Notes under the pieces: generated by a model
Databases searched by the model: none
Seen by the model: the letters and a program-made list of their open reading frames with translations, nothing else
Told to the model about the DNA's origin: nothing
Assembly: GCA_963788655.1 (NCBI GenBank)
Contig: CAWBHS010000060.1
Coordinates: 1-64,000 of the forward strand
Direction: 5' to 3'
DNA from: an uncultured Verrucomicrobiae bacterium
GTDB taxonomy: Bacteria > Verrucomicrobiota > Verrucomicrobiia > Limisphaerales > JAFGQR01
DNA: 64,000 nucleotides
In this document: in pieces, positions 1,244-15,843 of the stretch
Position numbering within the stretch: position 1 is the stretch's first letter
Layout of the letters: every line of letters begins with the position of its first letter
Made by a program: the position numbers and the translations under genes

Positions 1244-2251
1244 TTAAAGGTAACCGTAAGCCTTATTAAGTTTACCCGCTATCTTATCGAAAACATGAAG
1301 ATCCCTCGTATTTAGGTGGGCACACCACCGTTCATCCAAATGAATACCTGATACCTTATCGAATCGCATGCCATTACCTAACACGTGTTGTTCCAGCGAG
1401 CGAAAATCGAGCTGCAGGTTTTCCCTCATCGATGCCAAGCAATTCACAGACTGGCCGTATCGCCTCTGCCGGATCCTCGCACCATTGCTCATAGCGAACC
1501 TCACACCAGCGCGAGGAGGGCAACCGCTCCAGCAGATACTCGGCCTCCTCGTCTACAGCGCCATGCATGAGCACCCCTTGCAAGCTGGCGGTTGTGGGCC
1601 TTTTGGTCGAGCGTCGTTCGCCTTCGCCCAAATCCCCCTCCGCGAAGTTCGGGATCGCGGGAATCGGCAAAGGTGGCCTCGTCCGTCCACGTCAGTGCGA
1701 CACCGCGTCCGTCACGAATCAGGCGGATCACCTTGACGTCCAGGTCACGGTTCCTCAAAAGATACTTAAGGCGGAGGCCATTCTTGCTAGAATCCACAAC
1801 GGTGCTAGCACCGCTCAAGCTTAGAAGCGTTCGGACTATAGCGACATTTCGTTTCTGGACCTCACGTAAATGACGATGCCACCGAGGGTAGAGTGCAAGA
1901 GCCATGTCGCGAATAAATTCCAAATAAAATCCCCGATGCAGTGGGAGCAACATTGTGCGGATGAAGCAATCGTTTGTATTGCGGATGTCTGTTCCGCTGC
2001 GATGTGGGGCGTAATCGATGCCTTGTGATACTAACGCAGTGATGACGCGGGTCCAAAACGGGCAGCGGTTGATCACTTCGCGGCAGGAACATCGGTATTG
2101 CTCGGGTGCATGGGTGCGGACGCCATTCATCTCGCCAACTGTGATGCAACGTCCGGATCGGGTGCCCAGCAGCATGGCCGGCAGAGGTCGAACCGGAGTG
2201 GCTGGCGCCGAGGATGTAGGCTAGATGGGCAGCTAGACAGGTTAAGGGCAT
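1244..2251 (-). CDS. Sulfotransferase (frameshifted across several ORFs)
   Basis: YILGASHSGST (5'-PAPS loop), VVDSSK, VIRLIRDGRGV (3'-PAPS motif) and VRYEQWCEDP in successive frames. Confidence 0.85.
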
Positions 2252-2283
2252 GCTGAAACGCTGAAAAGCTGAAATGCTGAAAA
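2252..2283. repeat. Octamer tandem repeat (GCTGAAAN)x4 abutting the sulfotransferase start codon
   Basis: cat|gctgaaac gctgaaaa gctgaaat gctgaaaa. Confidence 0.85.
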
Positions 2284-2309
2284 GGAGATCGAATGATAGA
2301 AATCAGAGC

Positions 2310-3745
2310 TCAATGGCCAGAGGTCAGGCGGCTTGGGGGGATTCTTCCTCGCCCGGGAGTTCGGTTCGAGTTCTTCTTCTTCGGTAAAGACGGGTAAGCC
2401 CGAAGCCAATGCGCGAGAGCGCTCGACCGAAACGCGTAGCATAAGGAAAATCGAACCCACATGCCTACTGCGCCTTCTCTTGGGTAGAAGGTCTGGCCAC
2501 CCAGGGAACCCACAAGCAGGGCCAGAACCAATGCACAAGCTATGCCGCCAGCCGCTGAGCATAGGGGATCAGATCGGTCCAAGAACAAGTGAAAAGCGTG
2601 CCGGATTATCACAAGGTAAAATGAGGCCAAGAGGAGGAATCCGATCAAACCGCTGTCAAGCAGCACTTCCAAGTATGCATTGTGGGGATGAGGGAAGCTT
2701 TCACCGTATTCTGCCATGAGAAAGTCGCTGATGCCCGTGGTCACCATGGCCTCACGCCCGAACCCGACGAGTGGACTATCGCAGATCTTTTTCAAGACGT
2801 ATGGCCAGGCAATGGTGCGACCGGAGGTTATCTCATAATCATCACGCTCAACCACGATATTTCCCTGCTGGCCACCCATCCCTTGCAGAAATCGTTCCCT
2901 GATCCCCGGAAAAAGTACCTAATATGGTAGCAACTCCAACAGGAATGATTGGCAGAAGCTTGCGCCAACGGACCAAACAAAGAATGAAACCGACTGCCGC
3001 CCAACTAACATAACCCGTCCGGCCACCCGTCAGAGCCTGTGCCACGGCCACCACACCAGCTGCAGCAAATACCGCAGCTTGGTGAAGGCGTTTCCGAAAA
3101 AGCACCAGCGTGGCCAAGACGCACCCAACTTGCGCCCCCCAGCATCATTGACAAGGTCACGCGGTTATAGCCGATTTCATTCTGAATGATTTTCGACGCT
3201 CGTTGTGAAAGCTGGTCTCCAGATGCCATTGCGTAGTGCAAGGGCATCCATTTGATGACCTGAAGAGCCAAAAGGATATAGAGCAGGAGAACCGCTGCCA
3301 TGGCCACATGAACGCGTTTCCGCGTGCGACAACCGTCGAACAGTAGCAATCCCGGCAGCAGAAATTTGAAACCGTTAACGAAATGTTCGCTGATGATGTA
3401 GCTGGTGGGGTAACTGGTTTCGTAGCCTTCGCGGGTCCAAAACAAACGAAGGCTGGCAAGAAAGATCACCGCCAAGTAGGCTAGGAGGAGCCACGCAACA
3501 GAATATGGCATACCCCAAACCAAACCTTGTGCCTGGCGTTGCGAGAACCAGGCAAACAGCACATTGAGAATTAGAATGTTCCATGGATTCAGTCCCTGGA
3601 TGCCAGCAATACTCTTAGGCATGTCGGGATGCTCCATGACTGCCATGAGCAGAATTGCAGCGCAAAGCGAAATAAACCAATTCTTCCAAGCGTAAATGGA
3701 GAATCCAATTACGAACAGGAAGCAAAGTGCAACGCGAATGGACAT
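2310..3745 (-). CDS. O-antigen ligase / Wzy-like polymerase family membrane protein (frameshifted)
   Basis: Multi-TM ORFs 3005..3745, 2848..3117 (LTGGRTGYV) and 2310..2879 (ITSGRT...W, HPHNAYLEVLLDSGLIG). Confidence 0.85.
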
Positions 3746-4022
3746 TCTTAAAAAGCTGAAACGCTGAAAGGCTGAAACGCTGAAAGCGGAGGACAGATGT
3801 CAGAGGACGGAGGACGGACGGCAAGATGACAGATGACAGATGACGGACGACGGAGGACGGAGGACATTGTAAAACGCTGAAACGCTGAAACGCTGAAACG
3901 CTGAAAGCAGAGGTCAGAGGTCAGAGAGTCAGGAGTCGGATGACAGAGGACGGAGGACGGAGGACATTCTAAAACGCTGAAACGCTGAAATTCTAAAAGC
4001 TAAAACGCTGAAAGGCTGAAAT
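3746..4022. repeat. Composite spacer 1: (GCTGAAAC)n octamers alternating with CAGAGGA/CGGAGGA/CAGATGA heptamers
   Basis: Read directly; GGAGGACATT(G/C)TAAAA junctions at ~3860 and ~3959. Confidence 0.9.
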
Positions 4023-4232
4023 GGTTATTGGTGTTTGCGGATCTTGGAAACAATGGTCGTAAATATCGCGAGCAACTCGCCGGTTTCTTGCAGTAACGTG
4101 TCGGTTTCTTTGCCTGTTATGCCGCAGTCGTCGCGTAGTAGTTCAATCCAAAGTTGCGTTTCATCCGCCTCCTGTAGCAGTCCGTCGAGTTTCGAGCAGA
4201 ATTCTGCTTCCGAGCGCGCCCGGGATGCTTCT

Positions 4233-4487
4233 TTAGCCTGTTAAATAATGCCTACACCTGTTTTTGATGTACCGTTTTCCGTATGTGGTCTTTAGATATT
4301 TCTCTCTCCGAAAAGCATCTTGCACACTCAGGCAAGCTTCGTAGTAAATTAATTTTAACGGCCGCCGACCACGAGTGGAAGGAACCTTTCCGAACTCGTG
4401 GAGTGTTATCCGCTTGCGCAAATCCCTCGTGCATCCTGTATAGAACTGCCGATCGAAAGTTGAATGTAGAACGTAGACGTAAATCAT
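4233..4487 (-). CDS. GIY-YIG nuclease family protein (minimal, 84 aa)
   Basis: YVYVL...FYTGCTRDLRKRITLH...STRGRRPLKLIYYE...AFRREKYLKT. Confidence 0.92.
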   Translation of the reverse strand: MIYVYVLHSTFDRQFYTGCTRDLRKRITLHEFGKVPSTRGRRPLKLIYYEACLSVQDAFRREKYLKTTYGKRYIKNRCRHYLTG

Positions 4488-4507
4488 CCGACTATTTCAC
4501 AGGCCAA
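4233..4507. mobile_element. ~275-bp insertion with 15-bp imperfect terminal inverted repeats, carrying a GIY-YIG gene
   Basis: TTAGCCTGTTAAATA (4233-4247) vs TATTTCACAGGCCAA (4493-4507): 13/15 inverted match; removal restores the host reading frame. Confidence 0.8.
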
Positions 4508-4656
4508 GCGTGCGCGGCAACGGAGGTTCCGGAACGGAGTAACTGGTGACCCAAAACTTCGACCTCCTTGCGCGAGCATGGCAGACGGACATAGAAGCGT
4601 ATGATTGACGAAGCAAACCGTTTGGTCCGTTCCCGCAATTCTTCAGGAAGACGCAT

Positions 4657-4806
4657 TTTATTTAAACGCTGAAACGCTGAAACGCTGAAATGCTGAAATC
4701 AGAGGACGGAGGTCAGAGATCAGATGACAGACGACGGAGGACGGAGGACAGACCATTTAAGACCTGAAAGGCTGAAACGCTGAAAGACTGAGATACTGAA
4801 AGACTG
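4657..4806. repeat. Composite spacer 2 (octamers-heptamers-GACAGACCATTTAA-octamers)
   Basis: Read directly. Confidence 0.9.
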
Positions 4807-4820
4807 GCATCGGTTACTCG

Positions 4821-5126
4821 TTATTGGTTATCGAGGGATGGTTCGCCTTGCTGGCGTCCATCCCAGCAGCGAAGAATTTCAACCGTGCGGGACTCGTGCT
4901 GAACTCGGTAAAATACCTTGAACCATTTGGTCACGATGAAACGCCTGATGGCCGGTCGCTGCCGGACTCTTGGGTGACGTTCGGGGAAGAATGTTAAACT
5001 CTCGCTTGCATTGATGATTTGCTCACCCAGTCTTCGTGCGGCAATGGGGTTCTTGTCCGCGATGAAGCATACGATGCGTTCGAGGTCAGCCAGAAAGGTT
5101 TCCTGAAAGATTACCTTGAAGTCCAT
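4821..5126 (-). CDS. RelE/ParE family type II toxin
   Basis: FKVIFQETFLADLERIVCFIADKNPIAARRL...LTFFPERHP...VFYRV...VEILRCWDGRQ. Confidence 0.88.
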   Translation of the reverse strand: MDFKVIFQETFLADLERIVCFIADKNPIAARRLGEQIINASESLTFFPERHPRVRQRPAIRRFIVTKWFKVFYRVQHESRTVEILRCWDGRQQGEPSLDNQ

Positions 5127-5362
5127 TGACCCAGGCGTTGCCGGACTTCGTCTCCAGAATAACCACCGTTTTTCGCGCGGTCGGCTTGGGTAACCGCCTC
5201 GTCCAATGCTGCCAAAACATGAGGGTCATCTTCGGAGCATTCGTGTCCACTTGGCGAAGCTTCTTCTTGCGTGATGTAGGCTTGCCAGGATTTTAGGGCG
5301 AGCTCACGCAGTTGATGTGGGGTCAGATTCTGCAGCTCGTTTTCGATTTCGGTAAAGCTCAT
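5111..5362 (-). CDS. Putative antitoxin (addiction-module type)
   Basis: MSFTEIENELQNLTPHQLRELA...YSGDEVRQRLGQWTSR; overlaps the toxin start. Confidence 0.75.
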   Translation of the reverse strand: MSFTEIENELQNLTPHQLRELALKSWQAYITQEEASPSGHECSEDDPHVLAALDEAVTQADRAKNGGYSGDEVRQRLGQWTSR

Positions 5363-5402
5363 CGTCATCCAACGTAACCGGGTTGAGGCCAAAAGGCCAT
5401 TT

Positions 5403-5530
5403 GCATTTGCAAAAGCTGAAAGGCTGAAAGCAGAGGTCAGATGACAGAGGACAGAGGTCAGAGGACAGACCATTTAAAACCTGAAACGCTGAAAATCTGA
5501 AAGGCTGAAACGCTGAAAGGCTGAAAGGGG
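5403..5530. repeat. Composite spacer 3
   Basis: Octamers, heptamers, GACAGACCATTTAAAA, octamers. Confidence 0.9.
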
Positions 5531-5619
5531 GGCGCGAGGCGCAGTTATCGGCAATCGGGCAAATGAAATTATCGGTTAATGGTCATTCTGTTTCTTGGCA
5601 GGCCATTGCAGGTAAAAGG

Positions 5620-5877
5620 CTAACGCAAGTGCTCCACGTCAAGGATGTGCAGAGTCTTAACCATGTGCTCCGACCACCACGTGACGGTCCATGCATTGAA
5701 CCGCTTGACCTGGCAAGGACGCCCAACGTCGTCGAGTTGAGTGTAATCACCCTTAAGAGTTGGATCTGCGACTAATTGCCCAAAGATCCGAAGCAGCTCT
5801 TCCCGCTGGCGTTTGGTGGCCGAGGAGAACGTATCGAGCACTTCATCATCCACCGTATATCGGTAATCGGCTTTCAA
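5620..5877 (-). CDS. Putative RelE-like toxin, uncharacterised family
   Basis: 85 aa; LVADPTLKGDYTQLDDVGRPCQV...VTWWSEHMVKTLHILDVE; 4-bp overlap with upstream gene. Confidence 0.6.
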   Translation of the reverse strand: MKADYRYTVDDEVLDTFSSATKRQREELLRIFGQLVADPTLKGDYTQLDDVGRPCQVKRFNAWTVTWWSEHMVKTLHILDVEHLR

Positions 5878-6086
5878 GAATCCTCAGGCGAAAGCCGGTC
5901 GTGCAATTGCTGCAATTCTTCCGCCGAGTGGCCTTCGCCCTTCAGGGAGCGATTCAATCGACGCCCTAGTTCGGCTGGCCAGCTCGGATCCTCTTGCTTG
6001 GCTCGGCGGCGCAAGTAGTCTGCCAATTCCAAGCGTTCGTCAGCCGAAAGGTGATCGACGGCTGCTTTAATTTCTGCCACACTCAT
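5874..6086 (-). CDS. Putative antitoxin
   Basis: MSVAEIKAAVDHLSADERLELADYL...DPSWPAELGRRL. Confidence 0.65.
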   Translation of the reverse strand: MSVAEIKAAVDHLSADERLELADYLRRRAKQEDPSWPAELGRRLNRSLKGEGHSAEELQQLHDRLSPEDS

Positions 6087-6127
6087 GGTTTTAATTAACA
6101 TTGGCTACAGATTTTTCAAGAGAAGAA

Positions 6128-6345
6128 AACATTGTAAAACGCTGAAAGCAGAGGTCAGAGGACCGATGACGGAGGACAGCAGTCAGGGGTCAGAGATCAG
6201 CGGTCAGAGATCAGAGGTCAGAGGACGGAGGACAGACCATTTAAAAAGCTGAAACGCTGAAACGCTGAAATGCTGAAAGGCGATTCATTAGGACCAAAGG
6301 ACCAAAGGACCACGGACTAAAGGACTTTCTGAAATGCTGAAAAGA
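6128..6345. repeat. Composite spacer 4 (contains 142-bp direct repeat copy 1, 6141-6282)
   Basis: Near-identical to 7357-7498; followed by GGACCAAA/GGACTAAA units. Confidence 0.9.
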
Positions 6346-6373
6346 GGCGTGACGGTGCTCAAGGTCTTGGTGG

Positions 6374-7162
6374 TCAGTCTTCAGTCTTCGGTTTGCTTCG
6401 TTCACGCGCCTCTGCCATCCGAAGCGCTTCCAATTCCCGCTTCAACGGCTCCCAATAGGCACGGTCCTTTTCCTGTTCGGCGCGTGCTTCTGCGTCGAGT
6501 GCCAGACGCAGGGTGATGATGTCAGTCTCCAGTGCGTGACGGAGCAAAGGGCGTGTGCCCACGAGCGCAGCGCTTTCCGCGGAAAAGCGGTGAACCAACT
6601 CAATAAGCCGTTCCGGACCGCGTGCTTCCGTCAGCCAAAAACGGATCCGCTCGGGTGAGGGCTCCATGCCGGTGGCGTGGTAATGCCCTTCCACCAACGC
6701 CTCAATGATGGGCCAGTCCTTGGTGCGCTGGGTCTTCTTTGCTTGAACAAGGTCTTCCACCGCCAGCAGTTCAAACGTGTCGCCATTTTCTTCAGCCAAG
6801 GTAGTGCGACGCGCCCATAGGTCCGTAAAGTCCGGGAGTCCTCGAAGCCGGGTCATGAGGTCCACGCGCAGACCGTCTGCTGCCGGGTGCCGGCACCGAA
6901 AATGCACCGCGTGACCACGCGCCAGCAAGGTGGAATCAAAGGGTGGGACGGCAATTCGCACCGCCTGCAATTCATCGAGCGCCGCGCGGAGCCGAGAGAA
7001 ATTCTCCTCCGCGGCCAGCAGGGCGAGGTCCACGTCCTTACTAAACTGAGCCGCGCCGTAAAACACGCAGGCCTGGCCGCCCATAAGCAGGGCCTGCACC
7101 CGATGCTTGCGGATCGTGGAAAGGACTTGTCGGATCGGGGTCGGGATCAAGGCTGCCTCCAA
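6374..7162 (-). CDS. Pol-beta-type nucleotidyltransferase-like protein
   Basis: LLMGGQACVFYGAAQFSKDVDL (GG...DxD), VDLM, LVQAKKTQRTKD. Confidence 0.7.
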   Translation of the reverse strand: MEAALIPTPIRQVLSTIRKHRVQALLMGGQACVFYGAAQFSKDVDLALLAAEENFSRLRAALDELQAVRIAVPPFDSTLLARGHAVHFRCRHPAADGLRVDLMTRLRGLPDFTDLWARRTTLAEENGDTFELLAVEDLVQAKKTQRTKDWPIIEALVEGHYHATGMEPSPERIRFWLTEARGPERLIELVHRFSAESAALVGTRPLLRHALETDIITLRLALDAEARAEQEKDRAYWEPLKRELEALRMAEARERSKPKTED

Positions 7163-7265
7163 TGCTCAGGTAGTACGCAAACAACTCCTCACTGCGACGG
7201 AATCGCTCCAAGGGAGTCAGGTCGAGCCACTCCTTCCATTCGTCGGGCAATTGCTCGTAGAGCAT
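7041..7265 (-). CDS. Small hypothetical partner of the nucleotidyltransferase-like gene
   Basis: MLYEQLPDEWKEWLDLTPLERFRRSEELFAYYLSIGGSLDPDPDPTSPF; directly upstream and overlapping. Confidence 0.6.
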   Translation of the reverse strand: MLYEQLPDEWKEWLDLTPLERFRRSEELFAYYLSIGGSLDPDPDPTSPFHDPQASGAGPAYGRPGLRVLRRGSV

Positions 7266-7286
7266 GTTTTTAGATGCTGACTGACT

Positions 7287-7527
7287 CAAAAGCTGAAATT
7301 CTGAAACGCTGAAACGCTGAAAAACTGCTGATTAGGACTAAAGGACTTTCTGAAATGCTGAAAGCAGAGGTCAGAGGACCAATGACGGAGGACAGCAGTC
7401 AGGGGTCAGAGGACAGCGGTCAGAGATCAGAGGTCAGAGGACGGAGGACAGACCATTTAAAAAGCTGAAACGCTGAGATGCTGAAATGCTGAAAGGCGGA
7501 CTGAGTAAAACGCTAAAAGGCTGGAAA
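7287..7527. repeat. Composite spacer 5 (contains 142-bp direct repeat copy 2, 7357-7498)
   Basis: Read directly. Confidence 0.9.
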
Positions 7528-7542
7528 TGTTGGGGTCTTCAT

Positions 7543-7798
7543 TCAAGCACGTTCGATATTGATGACGCGCAATTCCTTAACGTGATTATCCAACCAAAAT
7601 GTGATGAAGAATCCCTCATGGAGTCTGATCTGAACCGTCCTGCCGGGTACTGTCGCGCGCTTCGTAATCACCTCGCTGGTAAGGATTCGCCGCCAATTCA
7701 TGCAAGACTTTGATCAAACCTTCCCTTTGGCGTGATTTACAGCCAAAAAGAAACTCCACCGAACTCTGACTCAAGATGAATTGCCAGTCCGAACTCAC
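7543..7798 (-). CDS. Putative RelE-like toxin, paralog of 5620-5877 (frameshift near 7640)
   Basis: MSSDWQFIL...LAANPYQRGDYEARDST / VQIRLHEGFFITFWLDNHVKELRVINIERA*. Confidence 0.6.
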
Positions 7799-8007
7799 AG
7801 GCCTTCAGCTTTCAGAGCATCGTGCAGCCGGGTCACTTGCTCCAATGAAAACTTCTTGCCAGTATCAATTTCGTCATTGAGCCGGGCGAGTTCTGCCTGA
7901 TAGCTCGGATCATCCACCCGGGCCAAATGCTTCAAATAGGCGGCGAGATAGACTCGTTCTTCGGGAGTCAGGTTCTCCGCAGTCTTCTTAATCTCAGTTG
8001 TTGACAT
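7795..8007 (-). CDS. Putative antitoxin, paralog of 5874-6086
   Basis: MSTTEIKKTAENLTPEERVYLAAYL...DDPSYQAELARLN. Confidence 0.65.
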   Translation of the reverse strand: MSTTEIKKTAENLTPEERVYLAAYLKHLARVDDPSYQAELARLNDEIDTGKKFSLEQVTRLHDALKAEGL

Positions 8008-8041
8008 ATTTACAATACTTGCCCGAGGCGGGCTGGTAATC

Positions 8042-8175
8042 AAACGCTGACTGAAGAAAAAGCTGAAAAGCTGAAAAGCTGACAAACTCAAACGCTGAAA
8101 CGCTGAGAAGCTGAAAAGCAGAGAACGAGGACAGCGTGAGGTCAGAGGACAGCCGTCAGTGGTCAGAGGTCAGAA
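8042..8175. repeat. Composite spacer 6
   Basis: GCTGAAAA octamers then CAGAGG heptamers. Confidence 0.85.
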
Positions 8176-8233
8176 ATGCAACAATAAGGATGTTATCACT
8201 CCAATCAGGTTTGCTTTCCAACGACACGGCTAT

Positions 8234-8329
8234 TTACGTCTCAAGAGCAGCTAGACGCACCACTTCCAGGTCGGCCGAGGCCATCCAAAGCCAATCCGCC
8301 GGGTTTCCCGCGTCAGTTTTCCTGGGCAA
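8234..8329 (-). pseudogene. Truncated HEPN-like partner of the MNT gene
   Basis: TTG start, MPRKTDAGNPADWLWMASADLEVVRLAALET*; overlaps MNT stop; resembles HEPN helix 1. Confidence 0.55.
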
Positions 8330-8672
8330 TGAGCACTCCTTCCCGGAGCACGGTGGCAAAGAAGGCGTCGTGAGCCGCTTTCTTTTCCGCCAATCGCTCC
8401 AGGGCAATCGGCAGGAGGGTGAAAGCAGGCTTGGGGCGAATGGGCCTCATGGCGTGGCGGAAAGATTGCGCGGCTTTGAGCTGTGCCGCAGCGCCCTCTG
8501 CCACGACGCAAAGATCAACGTCGCTATCGGCGCGAGCCTCGCCACGGGCGTGCGAACCAAAAAGATAAACTGCCTTGAGCGGCATCACCCGATTCATGGC
8601 CTCAAGGCATCGCACCAAGCTGTCATGCTGGGAATGCAACGAAGCAGGCAGGTTGTCCATTAAGAGTTTCAT
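8313..8672 (-). CDS. Minimal nucleotidyltransferase (MNT, MntA-like)
   Basis: VYLFGSHARGEARADSDVDLCVV. Confidence 0.9.
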   Translation of the reverse strand: MKLLMDNLPASLHSQHDSLVRCLEAMNRVMPLKAVYLFGSHARGEARADSDVDLCVVAEGAAAQLKAAQSFRHAMRPIRPKPAFTLLPIALERLAEKKAAHDAFFATVLREGVLIAQEN

Positions 8673-8696
8673 AACTGGAGACGACTTGAAAGGCGG

Positions 8697-8775
8697 ACTG
8701 AAGAAAACGCTGAAACATTCTAAAACGCTGAAAACGCTGAAAACCTGAAATGCTGAAAGGCTGAAAACTGAAAGG
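8697..8775. repeat. Spacer 7 (octamer run with ACATTCTAAAA motif)
   Basis: Read directly. Confidence 0.85.
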
Positions 8776-8797
8776 TTCGGGGAGCGGTTATCAATGG

Positions 8798-8977
8798 TCA
8801 TTTATCAGTGGATGGCCGCTGGGGTTGCCGCCGCTGCCGCAATGAACTGGAGGCGATGAGCCTACTGCGGTCGCGCAATTTCTCCAGCAGCGCGAGTTTT
8901 TCCGCAAATGGGAGGGCAGCCAGTTGTTTGCGTGTCACCTGCTTGTCGGCCAGGATTCTTTCGGTCAGCGGAATCAT
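8798..8977 (-). CDS. Small hypothetical protein (59 aa; not in the ORF track)
   Basis: MIPLTERILADKQVTRKQLAALPFAEKLALLEKLRDRSRLIA...; ATGA overlap with the upstream gene. Confidence 0.6.
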   Translation of the reverse strand: MIPLTERILADKQVTRKQLAALPFAEKLALLEKLRDRSRLIASSSLRQRRQPQRPSTDK

Positions 8978-9495
8978 GCGTTTTCCTCAAGAAACTTGTC
9001 ACTAAATGCCTGCCATTGAACAAGAAGTCCGTGGCGAGTGATAATGTCGCGGAGTTGAAGCCGGTTAATGACATCATTTTCCAGAAATTGGGTGATCCGG
9101 ATTTTGTCCTTTAACCGTCCGGTTTTCAGGGCAATGGCCAACAGATGTTCAGCGGTCATCACGCGTGTCTTGATTCCGTCCACATCCGTGGTGACCGCGG
9201 CGGCAATGGCCTCCTCCTCCAAAGGGCTGCCCGGGGGAAGAAATTGCACCGGCCAGCCGGCAATGATGATGTGCTCTCTCTCGACCTTGCAGCCACGTTT
9301 TCTGAGATAATCATATATGGGGGCCAGGGTGATTATTGAACGGTCGGGGTGATGCTGGAAGGAAACGAAAACATCAATATCGAGCGTGGCAGCAGGTTCG
9401 AGGTAAAAGGTGGCCCCGACAGCTCCACCAATGGCATATTGGCCAATGACGCCATCCGCCCGCATCTGGTTGATGATTTGCAGGGTACCTTTCAT
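8974..9495 (-). CDS. Nucleotidyltransferase-like protein
   Basis: YAIGGAVGATFYLEPAATLDIDVFV ... EHLLAIALKTGRLKD. Confidence 0.7.
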   Translation of the reverse strand: MKGTLQIINQMRADGVIGQYAIGGAVGATFYLEPAATLDIDVFVSFQHHPDRSIITLAPIYDYLRKRGCKVEREHIIIAGWPVQFLPPGSPLEEEAIAAAVTTDVDGIKTRVMTAEHLLAIALKTGRLKDKIRITQFLENDVINRLQLRDIITRHGLLVQWQAFSDKFLEENA

Positions 9496-9507
9496 GATTC
9501 TTTAGGA

Positions 9508-9643
9508 GAACATTCTAAAACGCTGAAAGGCGCAGAGGTCAGCCGTCAGCCGTCAGAGGACAGAGGACAGAGGACAGATGCTGGTTACGGAATGACGGAA
9601 TTCACGAAATGCTGAAATCCTGAAATACTAAAACGCTAAAACG
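9508..9643. repeat. Composite spacer 8
   Basis: ACATTCTAAAACGCTGAAA, heptamers, octamers. Confidence 0.85.
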
Positions 9644-9648
9644 ATGAG

Positions 9649-9896
9649 TCATGGGTTTCTTTTTGGCGCGAGCCAGCTTTCCAAGTCCTCCAGGCTGGTA
9701 AAATCCAGCAGCGCTTCACTGAGGGGTTCCAGACCGATCCAAAGGCAAATGACCAATGGCATTTTCGACTTGCATTGGCAAGGCTTGGAAGCGTTTGCGA
9801 GCCAGGCGAGATGACCAGATTCGCGGCTTCTTCCCGCCGGCCTTCTTGCCGGCCTTCCTGTCGGCCAACCCGTTCGATGCTTGTTACATAAGGCAT
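9649..9896 (-). pseudogene. Rpn/DUF4351-type C-terminal remnant
   Basis: MPYVTSIERVGRQEGRQEGRREEA... then, in another frame, LEPLSEALLDFTSLEDLESWL. Confidence 0.7.
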
Positions 9897-9955
9897 AGCT
9901 TTTTCACTTTCAATGCCCAGAATATCCGGATCTTTGTGTTCTTTGCGTTCTTTGC

Positions 9956-10757
9956 TCGCAGCCCATAAGGCTGCCAGTCCAGCCGGTGGAAGTCCGGCGA
10001 TGGTAAATGACGATGAACCATCCAGTGATAACCGACATGAGATTTCGGGGTGACCCGGCTCATGCAAGCTCGGTAGTAAACGTCCTGACCGGAGCAGGGC
10101 CAGCAACCTCTCCAGGCCGTAGCATCAAGCGAATGCTGCAGCTTCGTTACGCAACCCACGCGATCCGGAATCGTGGGACTTGTGGTGGTCGAGCCGGTGC
10201 AAAGACGGCGAAGACAGAATCCACGACGAAGGCATCGTCGAGTGCAGTCGTGGGCGCCACCGGAGTACGGGCGACGGCATGGGAGGAACGGACTGGCAGA
10301 GTAAATTGGGGACCCGCTACGGTTGGCGGGATGGACCCGCAATCCGACGGAATAATCCATAAGCCGTGGGATGGCCGTCAGAGGCGCAGATGTGGCCATA
10401 GTAAGCAACGATCCGGTCGGACAATACAACCGACTGGGGAGCCAAGGGCCACTGGATCCGCGGTTCAGGTCAGAAATCATCGGTGCCGCTTGGACGCAAG
10501 TCCGACTACGGATAAAACGCCGGGGATGGAGATACGAACAGTGACGGCCTATAAGCCGGCGTGGAGACGCTGGCGAAGGTGGCCGTGGCGTGAAGCGGGT
10601 TTGAAGCCGGTACTGGGGAAAACCCACCGTACGGAATTTTAGAGGGGGTGGAGGAAACGAAATGCATGGCCTGGTAGCCGTTTGCCACGATGCCCGAAAG
10701 GGCCGATACCTTGGAAGTTACTGGCCTAAACATGTTCGCGCCTCCGCTCTACTCGAT
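9956..10757 (+). mobile_element. ORF-less group II intron (~800 nt), antisense to the polysaccharide locus
   Basis: Domain V-like GAAGCCGGTACTGGGGAAAACCCACCGTACGGAATTTTAGAGGGGG (~10603-10648); domain VI ending CTCTACTCGAT; removal restores TTCTTTGC|GGTT; no RT ORF; 5' boundary uncertain by 1-2 nt. Confidence 0.82.
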
Positions 10758-10848
10758 GGTTGATTCCTCTCGTCTTAATTTTGTCGTTAGTTGGCGAGGC
10801 GCCGACCAAAGAGCCCGAGGCAGGCGCGCTCCCGACTACTATTTAATT

Positions 10849-11048
10849 AACCACAGAGAACACAGCGGTCCCAAAAGATGATTGTCAGAAGAAACAGTGA
10901 TCACAATCACCCGTCATGGCTCCAATATGCTTTCAAGAGTATTCGGATCTTTGTGATCTCTGCGATCTTTGCGGTTGGTTTCTCTCGTTTTGGTTTCGGC
11001 GTTGGTTGGCGAGGCGCCAACCAAAGCACCCGAGGCGGGCGCGCTCCC
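10849..11048. repeat. Composite repeat: AACCACAGAG...CTTTGCGGTT hairpin (10849-10976) plus REP-like palindrome (11004-11048); intron-free copy
   Basis: Similar to 9925-9955+10758-10833 and to 18451-18462+20441-20627. Confidence 0.8.
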
Positions 11049-11873
11049 TTTGTTCAGCAGCGGGAGGTGCCGGTGTTTGGCTGGAGTCAACATGGCGCCG
11101 GCGAAGGCCCAGAGGCAGATGGCGTTGGTTTTGGCGTAACGCCAGAACATGCGGCGGGGTTCCTGCACCACCCGGTAAAGCCATTCACAGCCGATACGTT
11201 GGAGCCACAGTGGCGAACGTTTCACCAAGCCCGCCATGACATCGAAGCTGCCTCCCACACCCTGGATGACCGTGGCGCCCAGGTGGCAGGCGTGTTGGGC
11301 CGCGAACCGCTCTTTCATCGGCGTGCCCATGCCCAGGAAGAGGATGTCCGGCCGGGCCGCGCGAACTTGGTCAACGACTGTCTTTGCTTCCGTTGGTGAG
11401 AAGTAGCCGTTGCGGAAGCCGGCCATTTGGAGGCGCGGGAATTCCTGGGTAATCCGGCGAACGCAAGCCTCGACCACTGGTTGTTTGGCCCCCAGCAGAT
11501 AGACACGGTATCCGTGTTCATTAGCCAGGGACAGCAACTTCCACATCAGGCCAATACCGTCAATTCGCTCGGGAATATGGACGCCTAGCAAGCGGGCCAT
11601 GGGTACGATGGGTTGGCCATCGGTGAGCACGTAATCGGACTGCCACAGGATGCGGCCCATTTCCGGGTCCTGTCGTACCTGGGCCACTTTGTTGGCGTTG
11701 ACGAACTGTATAACCTTGGGGCCAGTCTTGGTGTCAATGGCCTGGCGGAGTTCGGCCAGCAACTGATTGCTCGTCAGCAGATCCAGGGGACAGCCGAGGA
11801 AGTTGGCGCGGCGGTTGTTTTCGATCTTCTTAACCACGAATGAACACCAATAGACACAAATGAAATTCAACAA
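10914..11873 (-). CDS. WecB/TagA/CpsF family glycosyltransferase
   Basis: VNANKV, TDGQPIV, ERIDGIGL, YLLGA, RNGYF, FLGMGTP, GVGGSFD, EWLYRVVQEPRRM; true start probably downstream of 11873. Confidence 0.93.
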   Translation of the reverse strand: MLNFICVYWCSFVVKKIENNRRANFLGCPLDLLTSNQLLAELRQAIDTKTGPKVIQFVNANKVAQVRQDPEMGRILWQSDYVLTDGQPIVPMARLLGVHIPERIDGIGLMWKLLSLANEHGYRVYLLGAKQPVVEACVRRITQEFPRLQMAGFRNGYFSPTEAKTVVDQVRAARPDILFLGMGTPMKERFAAQHACHLGATVIQGVGGSFDVMAGLVKRSPLWLQRIGCEWLYRVVQEPRRMFWRYAKTNAICLWAFAGAMLTPAKHRHLPLLNKGSAPASGALVGASPTNAETKTRETNRKDRRDHKDPNTLESILEP

Positions 11874-11904
11874 CCCCGGTACACAGGAGGCAACGGAGAA
11901 TCGA

Positions 11905-11992
11905 TGCTGAAATCAGAGATCAGAGGACGGAGGACAGCAAACAGATGACAGAGGACGGAGGACGGAGGACAGTGAACGAATGTCAGAGGACA
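11905..11992. repeat. Heptamer array (CAGAGGA/CGGAGGA)
   Basis: Read directly; inverted relative to 12436-12552. Confidence 0.85.
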
Positions 11993-12006
11993 ATGGGCGT
12001 AAGGTT

Positions 12007-12393
12007 TTAACGGGCATTGGGGCAGAATTTTTCAGGATGCGCCATCATGGTGCCCAGCATTCGCCCGATTTCTTGGCACTTTTCGTTGAGTTCAACTTGC
12101 ACTGCTTGCGAGACGTAATTACAGGCCGCAGAAGTATCGATCCAATGTTGAGTTTCTGCTTGCTCACCATCAGCGTCAGTCAACTTGCTAACGAAATGAG
12201 CAGGGTAATTCCTTTTATGCCATGCCTCGGCGATATTGGACCCGATCGACCTGGACGACCTCCGGATTTGGTCGGTGAGCGCATATTGTTCTTCTCTTGG
12301 AAACGTTCCGCACGACTTGAAGATTTCCTGCTGGAGATCGAATGCCGCCTGATAAACTCGCAGATCTCGAAAACTTGAAATCTTGTCCGCCAT
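12007..12393 (-). CDS. Four helix bundle (23S rRNA IVP-like) protein
   Basis: SFRDLRVYQAA...FPREEQYALTDQIRRSSRSIGSNIAEAW...FVSKLTDADGEQAETQHW. Confidence 0.95.
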   Translation of the reverse strand: MADKISSFRDLRVYQAAFDLQQEIFKSCGTFPREEQYALTDQIRRSSRSIGSNIAEAWHKRNYPAHFVSKLTDADGEQAETQHWIDTSAACNYVSQAVQVELNEKCQEIGRMLGTMMAHPEKFCPNAR

Positions 12394-12435
12394 AACCTTC
12401 TCGATCTTCCCACTTCTCCTTCTTCGTGTTTTGAC

Positions 12436-12552
12436 TTCCGTCCTGACCTCGTCTTCCGACCTCTGCCCTCTGTCCTCCGTCTTCTGTCTTCCGTCTTCTG
12501 TCCTCGTCCTCCGTCCTCTGCCCTCCGTCCTCTGCCTCCGTCCTCTGCCTCA
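12436..12552. repeat. Heptamer array (TCCTCTG/TCCTCCG), opposite orientation
   Basis: Read directly. Confidence 0.85.
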
Positions 12553-12554
12553 GA

Positions 12555-13997
12555 CTAACTCGCGCCTTTGCCGAGGAGGACGACGGGGATGGTTTTGAGA
12601 AGGATTTTGAGGTCGAGCCAGATCGACCAGTTCTCGATGTATTGGCGGTCAAGCTCCATCCATTTGGCAAAGGGGATGTTGTTGCGGCCGCTTACTTGCC
12701 ACAGACAGGTAATTCCGGGTTTGATGGAAAGCCGGCGGCGATAGATCCAATCGTATTGATCGACTTCAGTCGCCAGTGGAGGCCGGGGACCAACAAGCGA
12801 CATTTCCCCTTTGAGGACGTTGAAAAGCTGGGGCAGTTCGTCAATGCTGGTTTTTCGGATCCAACGGCCAATCGGAGTGACGCGCGGGTCATTCTTGATT
12901 TTGAACACCGGTCCTTCCTGCTCATTCAGGCTGGCGAGTTCGTGTTTGCGCGCCTCGGCATCGACGATCATGGAGCGGAATTTGAGGAGCTTGAACTTGC
13001 GCTTGTTCATGCCGATACGCTCCTGCCGGAAAAAAACGGGGCCGGGACTGGTTGATTTGATCAGAATGGCGACGATCAGCAGTAAGGGGCTGAGTAACAC
13101 CAGAAGCGTGAACGAAACGATCAGATCCATGCTCCGTTTCACCAGTAACTGCCATAGAAGGTGTTCGCGGAAGAACGTGACGACACAATCGCCGTCAAAC
13201 AGTTCAACCTGCGACTGGGCAAAAGTTTTGATGTCCGCCAGATCCGGTACGATACGGACCACCACACCCAGGTCGCGGCATAGTCTGGTGATTTCGTAAA
13301 TGTCTTTGAAGGCTTCCTTCAACGGCAGGCAGACCATAACTTCATCCACCTCCCGCTGTTCCAGGAAAGGCTTGAAGCCGCTCACACGGTCCAAAATCGG
13401 CCACCCGGCCACTTTGGCTTGATCGCCATCTGAAGCGCGGTCGTTCTCCGCGATAAAGCCAGCAATCCGGTAGCCGAGTTCCGGGCTGCCTTCAATCCGG
13501 TGGGCAAAATCCAACGCGCGCTGATTAGTGCCCACAAAGACGAGATGCCGGCAGTTGAGTCCGGACTTGCGCAGGGTCATCAGAAGCCATCGCAAAACGA
13601 TTCGACTGGTAATGCACAGGAGGCAGGTGACTGGCCAGAACAGCCCGATGACCACCTTGGACAGGATCGAGATGTCCAGGGCGGCATCGATGATGAACAA
13701 CAGAAAGGTGGCAGCGGCCGTGGCTTTTACCACGCCGGCCAGGGAGGTAGCCAAAGAAGTGAAGCGGTTGGCATCGTAGTGGACCAGGTAATTGAAAACC
13801 AACGCCCATCCGGCCAACAGCATCATGGCGCCCACCGCATTCAAGCCGCTGTGAATGGCAACGAAACTATCGTAGAGAAACCTGAAACTGCCCCGCTCAT
13901 GCACGTAGGCAATCAGCAGAATCAGGGTTCCGACCAGGATGACCTGATCAGAGAGCCGAAAGGCGTGAATCAACAGCTTGTGCCGGAGGCGGAGCAT
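12555..13997 (-). CDS. Polyprenyl glycosylphosphotransferase (WcaJ/CpsE-type priming sugar transferase)
   Basis: N-terminal TMs, VFVGT, KRSMD, KFRSM, DPRVTPIGRWIRKTSIDELPQLFNVLKGEMSLVGPRP, KPGITCLWQV. Confidence 0.95.
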   Translation of the reverse strand: MLRLRHKLLIHAFRLSDQVILVGTLILLIAYVHERGSFRFLYDSFVAIHSGLNAVGAMMLLAGWALVFNYLVHYDANRFTSLATSLAGVVKATAAATFLLFIIDAALDISILSKVVIGLFWPVTCLLCITSRIVLRWLLMTLRKSGLNCRHLVFVGTNQRALDFAHRIEGSPELGYRIAGFIAENDRASDGDQAKVAGWPILDRVSGFKPFLEQREVDEVMVCLPLKEAFKDIYEITRLCRDLGVVVRIVPDLADIKTFAQSQVELFDGDCVVTFFREHLLWQLLVKRSMDLIVSFTLLVLLSPLLLIVAILIKSTSPGPVFFRQERIGMNKRKFKLLKFRSMIVDAEARKHELASLNEQEGPVFKIKNDPRVTPIGRWIRKTSIDELPQLFNVLKGEMSLVGPRPPLATEVDQYDWIYRRRLSIKPGITCLWQVSGRNNIPFAKWMELDRQYIENWSIWLDLKILLKTIPVVLLGKGAS

Positions 13998-13998
13998 G

Positions 13999-14368
13999 GG
14001 GCAGAGGGCAGAGGACAGGGGACGGAGGACGGAGGTCAGCGATCAGAGGACAGCGATCAGGGGTCAGTGATCAGGAGTCAGGGGGCAGAAATCAGGGGTC
14101 AGTGATCAGGGGTCAGTGATCAGGGGTCAGTGATCAGGGGTCAGTGATCAGGGGTCAGTGATCAGGGGTCAGTGATCAGGGGTCAGTGATCAGGGGTCAG
14201 TGATCAGGGGTCAGTGATCAGAGGACAGTGATCAGAGGACAGTGATCAGAGGACAGTGATCAGAGGACAGTGATCAGAGGACAGTGATCAGAGGACAGTG
14301 ATCAGGGGTCAGTGATCAGAGGTCAGTGATCAGAGGTCGGACTTGCTGAAATACTGAAACGCTGAAAC
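13999..14368. repeat. Tandem repeat of a 14-bp unit (TCAGTGATCAGGGG / ACAGTGATCAGAGG), ~17-18 copies in 14091-14338, with degenerate flanks
   Basis: Read directly. Confidence 0.95.
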
Positions 14369-14439
14369 TGTTGGATGACAGAGGAATTGGTTCTTTGGAT
14401 TTCTCTTGGCGAATTGGGCACATCTTCTCTGTTTGACTC

Positions 14440-14484
14440 GGTTGGCGAGGCGCCAACCGGTGCGCCCGGGGCGGGCGCGCTCCC
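14440..14484. repeat. REP-like palindrome family A (GGTTGGCGAGGCGCCAACC...GGCGGGCGCGCTCCC)
   Basis: Other copies at ~10790, 11004, 15869, 20582, 23271 (reverse) and 23363. Confidence 0.85.
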
Positions 14485-14493
14485 CGATGCGGA

Positions 14494-15843
14494 TCAGAGG
14501 TCGGGGAAGTCGAGACGCGGATAGTTAATCGAGATGCTCTTGCGGCCGGTTTCGTCAGGGGCGTTGGCAGTGAAGGTTAACGGTTCATTGTCGTTAAAGC
14601 GAAGCCGGACTCGCTCGGGGTCGGGAACGTAAATGGTTAAGCCAGCCAGGTCTTCCTTTTGAATTTGTGGCTGGTTTGGAAACTGGCCCTGGTTAGCAGC
14701 ATTGATATTAACCAGGTGCTCGCCATTCTGGCGCTCGGTGGTTACCCGCACGCGCTGAATCATTTGTTGAAAATCGAGCAGCCGGCGGGTGGTGGTTACG
14801 AGGATCTTACGGCGATAATAGTGATCGGCAAGCCGGCGAAAAGCAGCAATGGTGGCCGCGTTGAATCCTCGTTGTCCCGGACCGAGCTTGCCGAGGTGGG
14901 TGTAAAGGATGCAGGACCCCTGACGACCAACCAACGTGTCCAAGAAATTATCGGTGAGCACGGTGCTGATCCCAACGCCGGTGTCTCTACAACTCACGCC
15001 TCCCCAGTGCGGGTTGCAGCGAAGGAACTCGAGGGCCGGGGCGTTGTCGCGCAGGCGAATGGAGTGCATCAGCCGGTTGGGGCGGTGCAGGGCGTATTTG
15101 CGATGGCCACAGCGGGCGAGGAGTTGTTTAGCGGTTTCTTTGGCAAGCGTGCCGGAGGCTGCTAACAAATGGCCCGAGGACAGAGGTCGGAGGACAGCGG
15201 ACAGAGGACAGAGGTCGGAGATCAGATTACGGAATCGAAAGGGTTGGTCCTGGCCGATTACGCTGGTGATACGGCCGCGCCACACATACTGGATTCCGTA
15301 AGCCAGGGTCAGGTCGGCATGGTAAGCCGGGTGGCCATGGTCATCGCCATGGCCTTGCATGATGTCGGAGCCGAAGTTGGTGGGCGCAATCGCGTGATCC
15401 ACCCAAACTCGAAGACGGCAATCGTGCTTCTGTAACTCGTCCAGCGCTCGGGCGGCATGCGCCCGCGTGGTTGCCAGGTCGCCAAAGGAATGAAGGACAT
15501 CAATGTGCCCGCTCTGAATGAGGGTGCGGATGCGGGCTCGGTCGTACTCGTCGGCATTCCAGTAGGCGAAATGGTTCGGAGCCATATCGAAGTAGATGCT
15601 GTTTCCGACTTCCAGCCCCACGCCTTGGCCCATCGAGGTGGGGCCGGTCGTGTTGAGAAACCGGATGATTTCACAATAGGTTTCGGCGCCCGGAGTTTCA
15701 TCCAAGTCGCTGCAGATGGCCATGGCGGCCCGGTAGGGATACGGGAACCGACGCAACTCGGCTGTGAAGGCCGAGGACGGGCGGGGCAACGGCGCCCGGT
15801 GAGGGCGCGGTTCTCTATTCAATAGATTGGATTCGCAGTCCAT
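14494..15843 (-). CDS. Polysaccharide deacetylase-like hypothetical protein
   Basis: FPYPYRAAMAICSDLD, HSFGD, WVDH, ILYTHLG; in-frame repeat insert at 15176-15225. Confidence 0.65.
   Translation of the reverse strand: MDCESNLLNREPRPHRAPLPRPSSAFTAELRRFPYPYRAAMAICSDLDETPGAETYCEIIRFLNTTGPTSMGQGVGLEVGNSIYFDMAPNHFAYWNADEYDRARIRTLIQSGHIDVLHSFGDLATTRAHAARALDELQKHDCRLRVWVDHAIAPTNFGSDIMQGHGDDHGHPAYHADLTLAYGIQYVWRGRITSVIGQDQPFRFRNLISDLCPLSAVLRPLSSGHLLAASGTLAKETAKQLLARCGHRKYALHRPNRLMHSIRLRDNAPALEFLRCNPHWGGVSCRDTGVGISTVLTDNFLDTLVGRQGSCILYTHLGKLGPGQRGFNAATIAAFRRLADHYYRRKILVTTTRRLLDFQQMIQRVRVTTERQNGEHLVNINAANQGQFPNQPQIQKEDLAGLTIYVPDPERVRLRFNDNEPLTFTANAPDETGRKSISINYPRLDFPDL

Follow-up and report, generated by a model that had tools for sequence, protein, structure and literature searches.

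The stretch of DNA analyzed here, referred to as the window, comprises 64,000 nucleotides (nt) of contig CAWBHS010000060.1 from an uncultured Verrucomicrobiae bacterium. Positions 4236–4507 of its minus strand hold a 272-nt insert that is bounded by two inverted-repeat arms, encodes only a GIY-YIG nuclease of 84 amino acids (aa), and splits a host gene. We interpret the insert as a copy of a family of selfish GIY-YIG-only elements with a stem-guided mechanism, and assign to this statement as a whole a probability of about 0.6. The identity of the insert as a mobile GIY-YIG mini-element is very probable; a single-strand, stem-guided mechanism, which is drawn from analogy with characterized nucleases, is put forward more tentatively. 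The element family is widespread, and its mobile nature seems to have gone undescribed before.

An earlier note on this DNA, made from the sequence alone, had proposed a minimal mobile element that is bounded by inverted repeats and carries only the nuclease. The repeats that flank homologs, the empty sites, and the derivatives without an open reading frame (ORF) that are described below all support this proposal. Movement in trans, which the note had also considered, fits as well, given that the ORF-less derivatives carry the same arms.

The window copy and its split host gene

In element orientation, the insert consists of TTG, a 12-nt arm, the nuclease gene, and a second 12-nt arm (Table 1). 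The two arms are paired at 11 of 12 core positions, with one G/A mismatch. As the earlier note had recognized, the nuclease ORF fills almost the whole insert, and its stop codon lies within a 15-nt inverted repeat (4233–4247 and 4493–4507) that is complementary at 13 of 15 positions (87%). The right arm codes for the COOH-terminal Y-L-T-G of the nuclease, and the stop codon itself, TAA at 4233–4235, is host sequence under the 272-nt boundary model.

Table 1 Features of the window copy and of the gene that it interrupts.
Feature	Position	Strand	Basis or remark
Inserted mini-element, 272 nt	4236–4507	–	Ends good to about 3 nt
Left (5') arm, core GCCTGTGAAATA in element orientation	4493–4504	–	Inverted-repeat search and alignment with 65 other loci
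TTG outside left arm	4505–4507	–	Aligned ends
Right (3') arm, core TATTTAACAGGC in element orientation	4236–4247	–	Inverted-repeat search and locus alignment
GIY-YIG nuclease ORF, 84 aa, stop included	4233–4487	–	ORF list, Pfam PF01541
Host gene NH2-terminal piece, M...GTSVAAH(A)	4508–4656	–	Alignment with intact paralogs and with equivalent pieces in L017 and others
Host gene COOH-terminal piece, (A)KEASRARSEAEF...KHQ-stop	4025–4235	–	Translation, PF05635 match, paralog alignment

The host ORF at 4492–4656 (minus strand) reads MRLPEELRERTKRFASSIIRFYVRLPCSRKEVEVLGHQLLRSGTSVAAHA followed by WPVK-stop; its frame enters the left arm and ends at a TAG located 5 nt before the nuclease ATG. The host frame is picked up again as (K)EASRARSEAEF...KHQ-stop from 4231/4234 downward on the same strand. 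Translations and the PF05635 match thus agree with the previous description of a gene that breaks after ...LRSGTSVAAHA and resumes at EASRARSEAEF. The COOH-terminal piece matched PF05635 (23S_rRNA_IVP) at model positions 48–103 with an E value of 1.1e-4, which alone is below the family cut-off, and the NH2-terminal piece alone gave no Pfam match at E ≤ 0.01. Judged from its sequence, the host is a PF05635-type four-helix-bundle gene that carries the element in sense orientation, with the insertion point between the codons that match I and A of the N-I-A-E-G motif of the family. Both halves of the host gene are still open and the nuclease ORF is intact. The element DNA is unique within its own genome.

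Excision of 272 nt (4235–4506 or 4236–4507) yields AHAKEA in one open frame, and excision of 275 nt (4233–4507) yields AHAEA, also in one open frame. Both removals that had been suggested previously therefore restore a frame, but only the 272-nt removal results in a length that is normal for the family (GTSVAAHAKEAS vs. GTSVGANYRAAC; six intact paralogs in the same genome). The notion of an insert of about 275 bp with terminal repeats was thus retained, whereas its ends are better placed at 4236 and 4507, with the stop codon TAA on the host side.

The nuclease

The 84-aa protein matched the Pfam GIY-YIG model (PF01541) with an E value of 1.1e-11 and a score of 45.3 bits (cut-off, 22.6), residues 1–72 being aligned with model positions 1–76 of 78. 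It is a single-domain protein: GIY-YIG alone matches, together with the overlapping T5orf172 model, and no DDE, HUH, serine, or tyrosine transposase domain was detected. A scan of NCBIfam assigned the window protein to no family. Mean column identity among 20 family members was 67%, and all 24 columns that are invariant in these members are preserved in the window protein, including Y5, Y16, G18, R26, H30, and E62. The two Tyr residues together with the Arg, His/Tyr, and Glu residues are presumably the catalytic residues of the GIY-YIG fold. At least 3307 clusters of related proteins were found at E ≤ 1e-5, with generic names only. Sequence matches in PDB were limited to the UPF0213 proteins 1zg2 and 1ywl (best match 1zg2, E value of 3.2e-6), and a protein search of a plasmid collection, which covered plasmids from species listed in the Ssn paper (PMC11893778), returned one weak, unrelated match.

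Element family and covarying arms

Relatives of the nuclease are encoded at 504 genomic places (one genome per species). We fetched the best 80, which have identities of 58–79% and record titles that span many phyla, and added the window copy and a second copy from the same genome to obtain a set of 82 loci; loci are designated below by L numbers and contigs of the window's own genome by C numbers. Elements in the family are approximately 265–300 nt long and encode single-domain nucleases of 82–90 aa. An inverted repeat with a score of ≥9 brackets the ORF in 76 of the 82 loci, so that the expectation that short homologs, many of which end in Y(L/F)TG-stop, keep the repeats next to differing neighbors was borne out. 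The arm core of the family is CCCYGTNAAATA and variants thereof (12 nt), with 3 or 4 additional nt (TTCA, TTTA, or TTG) outside the left arm. The distance from the left arm to the ATG ranges from 0 to 50 nt across the loci.

A strict 12-nt core pattern is present in 66 of the 82 loci, which contain 35 distinct cores. Watson-Crick pairs occupy 755 of the 792 core arm positions of these 66 loci, compared with a mean of 623 (standard deviation, 7; maximum, 650) when partners were shuffled among loci 2000 times. Several positions have changed together on both sides of the pair; at core position 7, for example, 38 loci have G-C, 18 have T-A, and 6 have C-G. The right arm codes for the COOH-terminal Y-(L/F)-T-G in most members. 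Given that it follows the stop codon in loci in which the ORF ends early (L044, L046, L059, L061, L067–L069, and L076), the arm is kept for itself and not as coding sequence. The 37 arm mismatches comprise 13 G/T, 8 A/C, and 16 others, without a sense-strand G-U bias, and a search of eight loci against Rfam at E ≤ 1 found nothing on the element, the only matches being a tRNA and a chance plastid motif in L028. The arms are accordingly interpreted as a feature of the DNA. The possibility that the whole element folds as one long hairpin was rejected; just a terminal stem forms, and does so clearly in L003, for which both the minimum-energy and the centroid folds contain a terminal stem of 13 bp.

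A quick tree of 78 proteins, prepared without L074, L080, and L082 (cut or fused) and L076 (inner stop), was compared with the phylum labels of the source genomes. The 60 labelled rows carry 24 phylum labels and require 32 changes against a minimum of 23, a mild incongruence; phylum labels of bins are unreliable. Extra arm copies or tandem arm pairs are located beside the element on its upstream side in L042, L049, and L083, as exemplified by TATTTCACAGGGTAAACCCT in L042, which suggests nested or adjacent insertions.

Signs of movement

Elements at different loci can be more alike than the host DNA around them. The elements of L017 and L018 are 85% identical, and their host flanks (140 and 190 nt) are 66–67% identical; those of L024 and L022 are 80% identical, with flanks of 60–61%. 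For the window copy and L017, the element (68%) and the host (63–69%) have diverged about equally, and this pair alone is uninformative.

A second copy in the genome of the window (L003, contig C59) encodes a protein that is 61% identical to that of the window copy, in an element of 284 nt with perfect 12-nt arms. It splits an integrase gene in sense orientation, between ...ELLRLRV and KDVDLEQ.... An integrase paralog on another contig (C49:288359–289647, minus strand) is approximately 88–90% identical on both sides and is without the 284-nt element. The sole indel in about 1280 aligned nt of the two integrase genes is a 3-nt sequence (GGT) exactly at the insertion site, and this GGT gives rise to an in-frame TAG in the otherwise open C49 gene. 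We interpret the 3-nt sequence as a trace of excision or of cleavage and repair, although it could also be a coincidence.

The same genome contains ORF-less derivatives of 70–110 nt, and those in C65/C66 and C109 share the arms of the C59 copy. A derivative of 73 nt follows directly after the stop codon of istB and is identical in contigs C65 and C66; one of about 110 nt is present in C109, and a diverged one in C93. The C65 and C66 contigs are identical over 1256 nt (C65:2091–3346 and C66:1838–3093), a stretch that covers the end of an IS21-type istB gene, the 73-nt derivative, and the DNA that follows, and that reflects duplication either of an insertion sequence or in the assembly.

The derivatives in C109 and C93 reside in a dispersed repeat, of which two filled copies can be compared with four empty ones (C4, C48, C93, and C89). 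Empty copies read ..CCYGG TCAA CMCAAGGACGTGG..., and filled copies read ..CCTGG (TTCA-arm...arm) TAAA CCCAAGGACG.... Host length is equal in the filled and empty copies, with no duplication and one base different (TCAA vs. TAAA); the C49 and C59 integrase genes manifest the same TCAA/TAAA difference. The search for empty alleles that the earlier note had recommended was thus successful for these repeat copies and for the integrase paralog but not for the window site, for which a 2.5-kb query of 60 related genomes revealed no orthologous empty allele. That query matched just simple repeats and short pieces in those genomes. The public sequencing runs listed for this DNA comprised no RNA run and just two DNA runs with small shares, and no joints were seen among the public contigs. 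One public contig of 151 nt is identical to the window over 4208–4358, but it extends less than 31 nt into the host side and so was not counted as bridging.

Insertion targets

To characterize the interrupted genes, we compared the longest open frame at each junction, in any of six frames, with Pfam (76 loci, 131 flanks). Pieces of PF05635 genes abut the element in 20 of the 76 loci, on both sides in 10 of them. The NH2-terminal pieces end at model positions 43–47 and the COOH-terminal pieces begin at 46–49, corresponding to the N-I-A-E-G motif as in the window. The same PF05635 site was recognized by eye in six further loci (L018, L020, L021, L025, L030, and L082). Genes for PDDEXK_3 proteins (PF13366) are interrupted in five loci, with the break at positions 26/28 in three. 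Tyrosine recombinase genes are interrupted in two loci at different positions, that of L003 and one inside the SAM-like domain in L086. Copies in candidate phyla radiation (CPR) genomes are intergenic, and no more than a few nt separate their right arm from the start codon that follows; such copies lie, for example, between pgk and tpiA, between secD and secF, and ahead of mutM. Flanking genes that match Pfam share the strand of the nuclease in 50 loci; the three loci with the opposite orientation involve two group II intron reverse transcriptase genes (L027:304–1557 and L034:763–1800) and one weak match.

One of the PDDEXK_3 loci (L062) belongs to an array in a Marinilabilia genome (G061:C4:19000–33000) that consists of paralogs with shared repeats. 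Just upstream of the element copy, a solo right arm (L062:1430–1450) takes the place of approximately the first 20 codons of the interrupted gene.

Element ends and target sequence

We compared end models by eye, with boundaries taken from filled and empty pairs in the window's own genome and from the aligned ends of 66 loci. A model in which the element consists of TTYA followed by the two arms and the DNA between them fits the window copy (272 nt), L003 (284 nt), L043, the C65 derivative, and the filled/empty set. The right arm is followed by TAAA or TGAA in 45 of the 66 loci, and in the window copy and L003 these 4 nt supply the stop codon of the nuclease. We regard these bases as the next bases of the host, although they may be part of the element.

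A target-site duplication was rejected, given that family-wide counts never exceeded those of shuffled controls. For duplications of 3, 4, or 5 nt, with each boundary shifted by 0–6 nt, the best count was 7 of 66 loci and the shuffle maximum was also 7. The GCT that the earlier note had offered as a possible 3-bp duplication is indeed present at both junctions of the window copy, but it does not hold as a duplication; because no duplication model outperforms shuffling, it is most likely a chance overlap with the arm.

Proposed mechanism and alternative explanations

We propose that the nuclease would recognize the stem formed by the two arms, most likely on single-stranded DNA as the Ssn nucleases do, and would cut at the foot of this stem. 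The element would then be joined or copied in, without duplication, beside a tetranucleotide resembling T(A/G)AA with which its TTYA end could pair, and the joining would be performed by host enzymes. Spread to the same site in paralogs would resemble homing, and occasional jumps to new sites would resemble transposition. Expression of the nuclease probably relies on host transcription, because the element leaves no space for a promoter and the host frame is terminated by the left arm shortly ahead of the ATG. In both the window copy and L003, this stop falls within the arm, 5–7 nt before the ATG.

Several points weigh against this reading. The mechanism is modeled on Ssn, and movement of the element by its own nuclease is inferred. 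Single-strand folds of whole elements are no better than those of shuffled sequences (z scores of –0.04 and –0.89), the former value being that for the window copy, the centroid of which shows a terminal stem of 6 bp only. The arms of the window copy, with their one core mismatch, are weak, and the window site is without an empty counterpart in the 60 related genomes. The model does not explain why empty sites have TCAA and filled sites TAAA. By-eye reading of three related PF05635 insertions indicated that removals of 272, 273, and 274 nt are needed to restore the frame, and the L062 copy is without 41 nt of host sequence that is present in intact paralogs (three of them in one array); as a consequence of this host loss and of the non-uniform removal lengths, joining appears not to be always clean. 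The repeats described for Ssn are local hairpins of 20–50 nt, whereas the arms here pair across approximately 245 nt. Nor do the arms, inspected by eye in 66 loci, fit the published search motif for SRM (HGTCWY..YYVSBRH..WNVSBRG..RNCYNB; PMC11893778): the GTCWY start is absent and a single arm forms no hairpin.

The number of close copies per genome, just one or two in six genomes, also counts against transposition and is better accommodated by homing. The main rival to our reading is accordingly a classical free-standing homing endonuclease gene that makes a double-strand break at the site coding for N-I-A-E-G and is copied in by repair, with the arms having a role in expression or insulation, such as ending the host frame or transcription. 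Such a gene would account for the same codon being struck in 20 PF05635 hosts, for the recurrent PDDEXK_3 sites, for targets that are multicopy gene families offering homology, and for elements that are more alike than their flanks; the replacement of host sequence in L062 is as expected if the recognition site is lost. GIY-YIG enzymes are hydrolytic nucleases that are not known to have strand-transfer activity, which we also count in favor of homing. Homing requires no cis inverted repeats, however, and yet the arms are the best conserved, covarying feature of the DNA. ORF-less derivatives are found at unrelated sites without flanking homology, such as after the istB stop codon and in the dispersed repeat, and full copies occupy unrelated sites as well, including two integrase positions and intergenic sites at start codons. 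The 84-aa protein also lacks the separate DNA-binding domain that known GIY-YIG homing enzymes use. On balance we regard homing in this classical form as an unlikely, though serious, explanation.

The preponderance of sense orientation relative to the host (50 loci against 3), the frequently open and recognizable host halves, which both match PF05635 in 10 loci, and the fact that the host family itself is known, according to its Pfam name, from rRNA intervening sequences might point to an element that acts at the RNA level, with the arms pairing in the transcript and the insert being removed like an rRNA intervening sequence or an intron to leave a functional host gene. The Rfam result for eight loci and the composition of the arm mismatches described above argue against this explanation, as do the non-uniform removal lengths, the replacement of host sequence by some copies, and the presence of derivatives outside genes. 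Processing of the RNase III type, moreover, cuts mRNA without rejoining it. We consider this the least probable of the alternatives, and a very remote one. Also improbable, but somewhat less so, is a resident, domesticated gene for an Ssn-type nuclease with cognate repeats, now immobile, in which case the split of the host gene would be an old, vertically inherited accident. The similar divergence of host and element between the window copy and L017, the single-copy state of the window element DNA, and its imperfect arms are consistent with domestication, and the Ssn authors propose it for Neisseria (PMC11893778). On the other side stand the filled and empty sites in the family, the elements that are more alike than their flanks, and the fully intact nuclease ORF, and the still open host halves argue against great age unless they are under selection. 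A mobile GIY-YIG element with a stem-guided mechanism thus remains our preferred explanation.

Genomic neighborhood of the window copy

The element is situated in a stretch (2250–15220) of small genes separated by composite simple repeats of the form (AAACGCTG)n - (CAGAGGA/CGGAGGA)n - (AAACGCTG)n. These genes include four-helix-bundle genes, a ParE toxin gene, and a nucleotidyltransferase-like ORF, and similar composite repeats are present on other contigs and in related genomes. The stretch looks like a cassette array of some kind. The gene for the ParE-type toxin (PF05016, E value of 1.3e-10; 4821–5126, minus strand) lies near the element and is overlapped upstream by an ORF without a Pfam match (5111–5473, minus strand), with which it may form a toxin-antitoxin pair. 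A 14-nt tandem repeat (GGTCAGTGATCAGG) with 22 copies and 90% matches extends over 14034–14338.

Implications

Provided that the nuclease does move the element, nothing more than a hydrolytic enzyme of 84 residues and two 12-nt arms is required for an autonomous mobile element. No nuclease-only transposon is known to be listed among bacterial insertion sequences. The proposal would explain the small genes annotated as "GIY-YIG nuclease family protein" that interrupt or adjoin four-helix-bundle, PDDEXK_3, and other genes in many phyla, a common puzzle of annotation. Because each arm-nuclease pair covaries, the family offers a natural collection of sequence-specific nucleases matched to their sites. 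The proposal would further provide a biological origin for Ssn nucleases and their hundreds of hairpin repeats, the role of which outside Neisseria is described as open (PMC11893778).

A bolder version of our reading, which we hold to be doubtful, is that these elements are the smallest autonomous DNA transposons known and form a class of their own, new among the mobile elements of prokaryotes. A single-domain GIY-YIG nuclease of hydrolytic type would move them by reading a stem that the two element ends form on single-stranded DNA, and they would be inserted free of duplication beside a tetranucleotide that pairs with the element end. The Ssn/NTS hairpin systems known from Neisseria, Rickettsia, and Wolbachia would then be domesticated or decayed descendants of such elements. 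In this version, split host genes may remain usable because the element is able to leave, and the 3-nt scar in the C49 integrase gene would be one such exit.

Comparison with known systems

Free-standing GIY-YIG homing genes are represented by those for the phage T4 Seg proteins and the I-TevI family. As in the element family, the selfish insert carries no gene other than that for a GIY-YIG nuclease, homologous genes are hit at the same site, copy number is low, and the host gene may be split. The known GIY-YIG homing enzymes contain 200–250 aa with a separate DNA-binding domain, compared with 84 aa here. Homing genes are not known to have terminal inverted repeats or ORF-less derivatives, and the element family differs from them also in landing at unrelated sites.

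With IS200/IS605 elements the family shares the absence of duplication, a fixed orientation, the presumed recognition of DNA secondary structure instead of long terminal repeats, and associated ORF-less palindromic repeats. A short tetranucleotide target may be a further parallel, although its bases possibly belong to the element itself here and the empty sites read TCAA. The "peel and paste" transposition of IS200/IS605 elements depends on an HUH tyrosine (Y1) transposase, covalent intermediates, and separate subterminal hairpins for each end. The elements described here instead encode a GIY-YIG nuclease, which is hydrolytic, and their two ends pair with one another. Of the features of insertion sequences in general, terminal inverted repeats are present (76 of 82 loci), whereas a fixed duplication and a known class of transposase are not. 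The gene-less inverted-repeat derivatives of 70–110 nt in C65/C66, C109, and C93 resemble miniature inverted-repeat transposable elements (MITEs) such as Correia/NEMIS, RUP, and ERIC. Known MITEs derive from insertion sequences with DDE transposases and carry target duplications; the derivatives described here, in contrast, stem from a nuclease-only element and show no duplication.

The closest characterized relatives appear to be the Ssn single-strand nucleases with their hairpin repeats (Chenal et al., Nat Commun 2025, PMC11893778). Ssn enzymes are described there as single-domain GIY-YIG proteins of approximately 94 aa whose binding to the hairpin repeat is confined to single-stranded DNA and whose cut falls immediately upstream of that repeat. 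Repeats are present on both sides of 42% of ssn genes, and the authors liken this repeat-gene-repeat arrangement to an insertion sequence and suggest domestication, but did not demonstrate mobility. The repeat motif was defined with 29 genomes listed in supplement file 12, and we did not find the arm sequences in 12 of the 14 supplement files. Like the Ssn systems as described there, the elements consist of a gene for a single-domain GIY-YIG protein of about 90 aa (84 aa in the window) between cognate inverted-repeat DNA that appears to coevolve with the nuclease, and ORF-less repeat copies are scattered in the genome. By eye, the left half of NTS (..GTCATTCCCGCG) also resembles an arm together with its outer bases (..GTTCACCCCGTG). 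The element copies differ from the published Ssn systems in being located inside genes at recurrent codons and in having filled and empty sites that show actual mobility. In the literature at the level of titles and abstracts, and beyond that in part of PMC11893778, we found no description of a GIY-YIG-only mobile element bounded by inverted repeats. What is new here is a GIY-YIG selfish element, or an Ssn-type system, that is built like a transposon and shows clear signs of being mobile.

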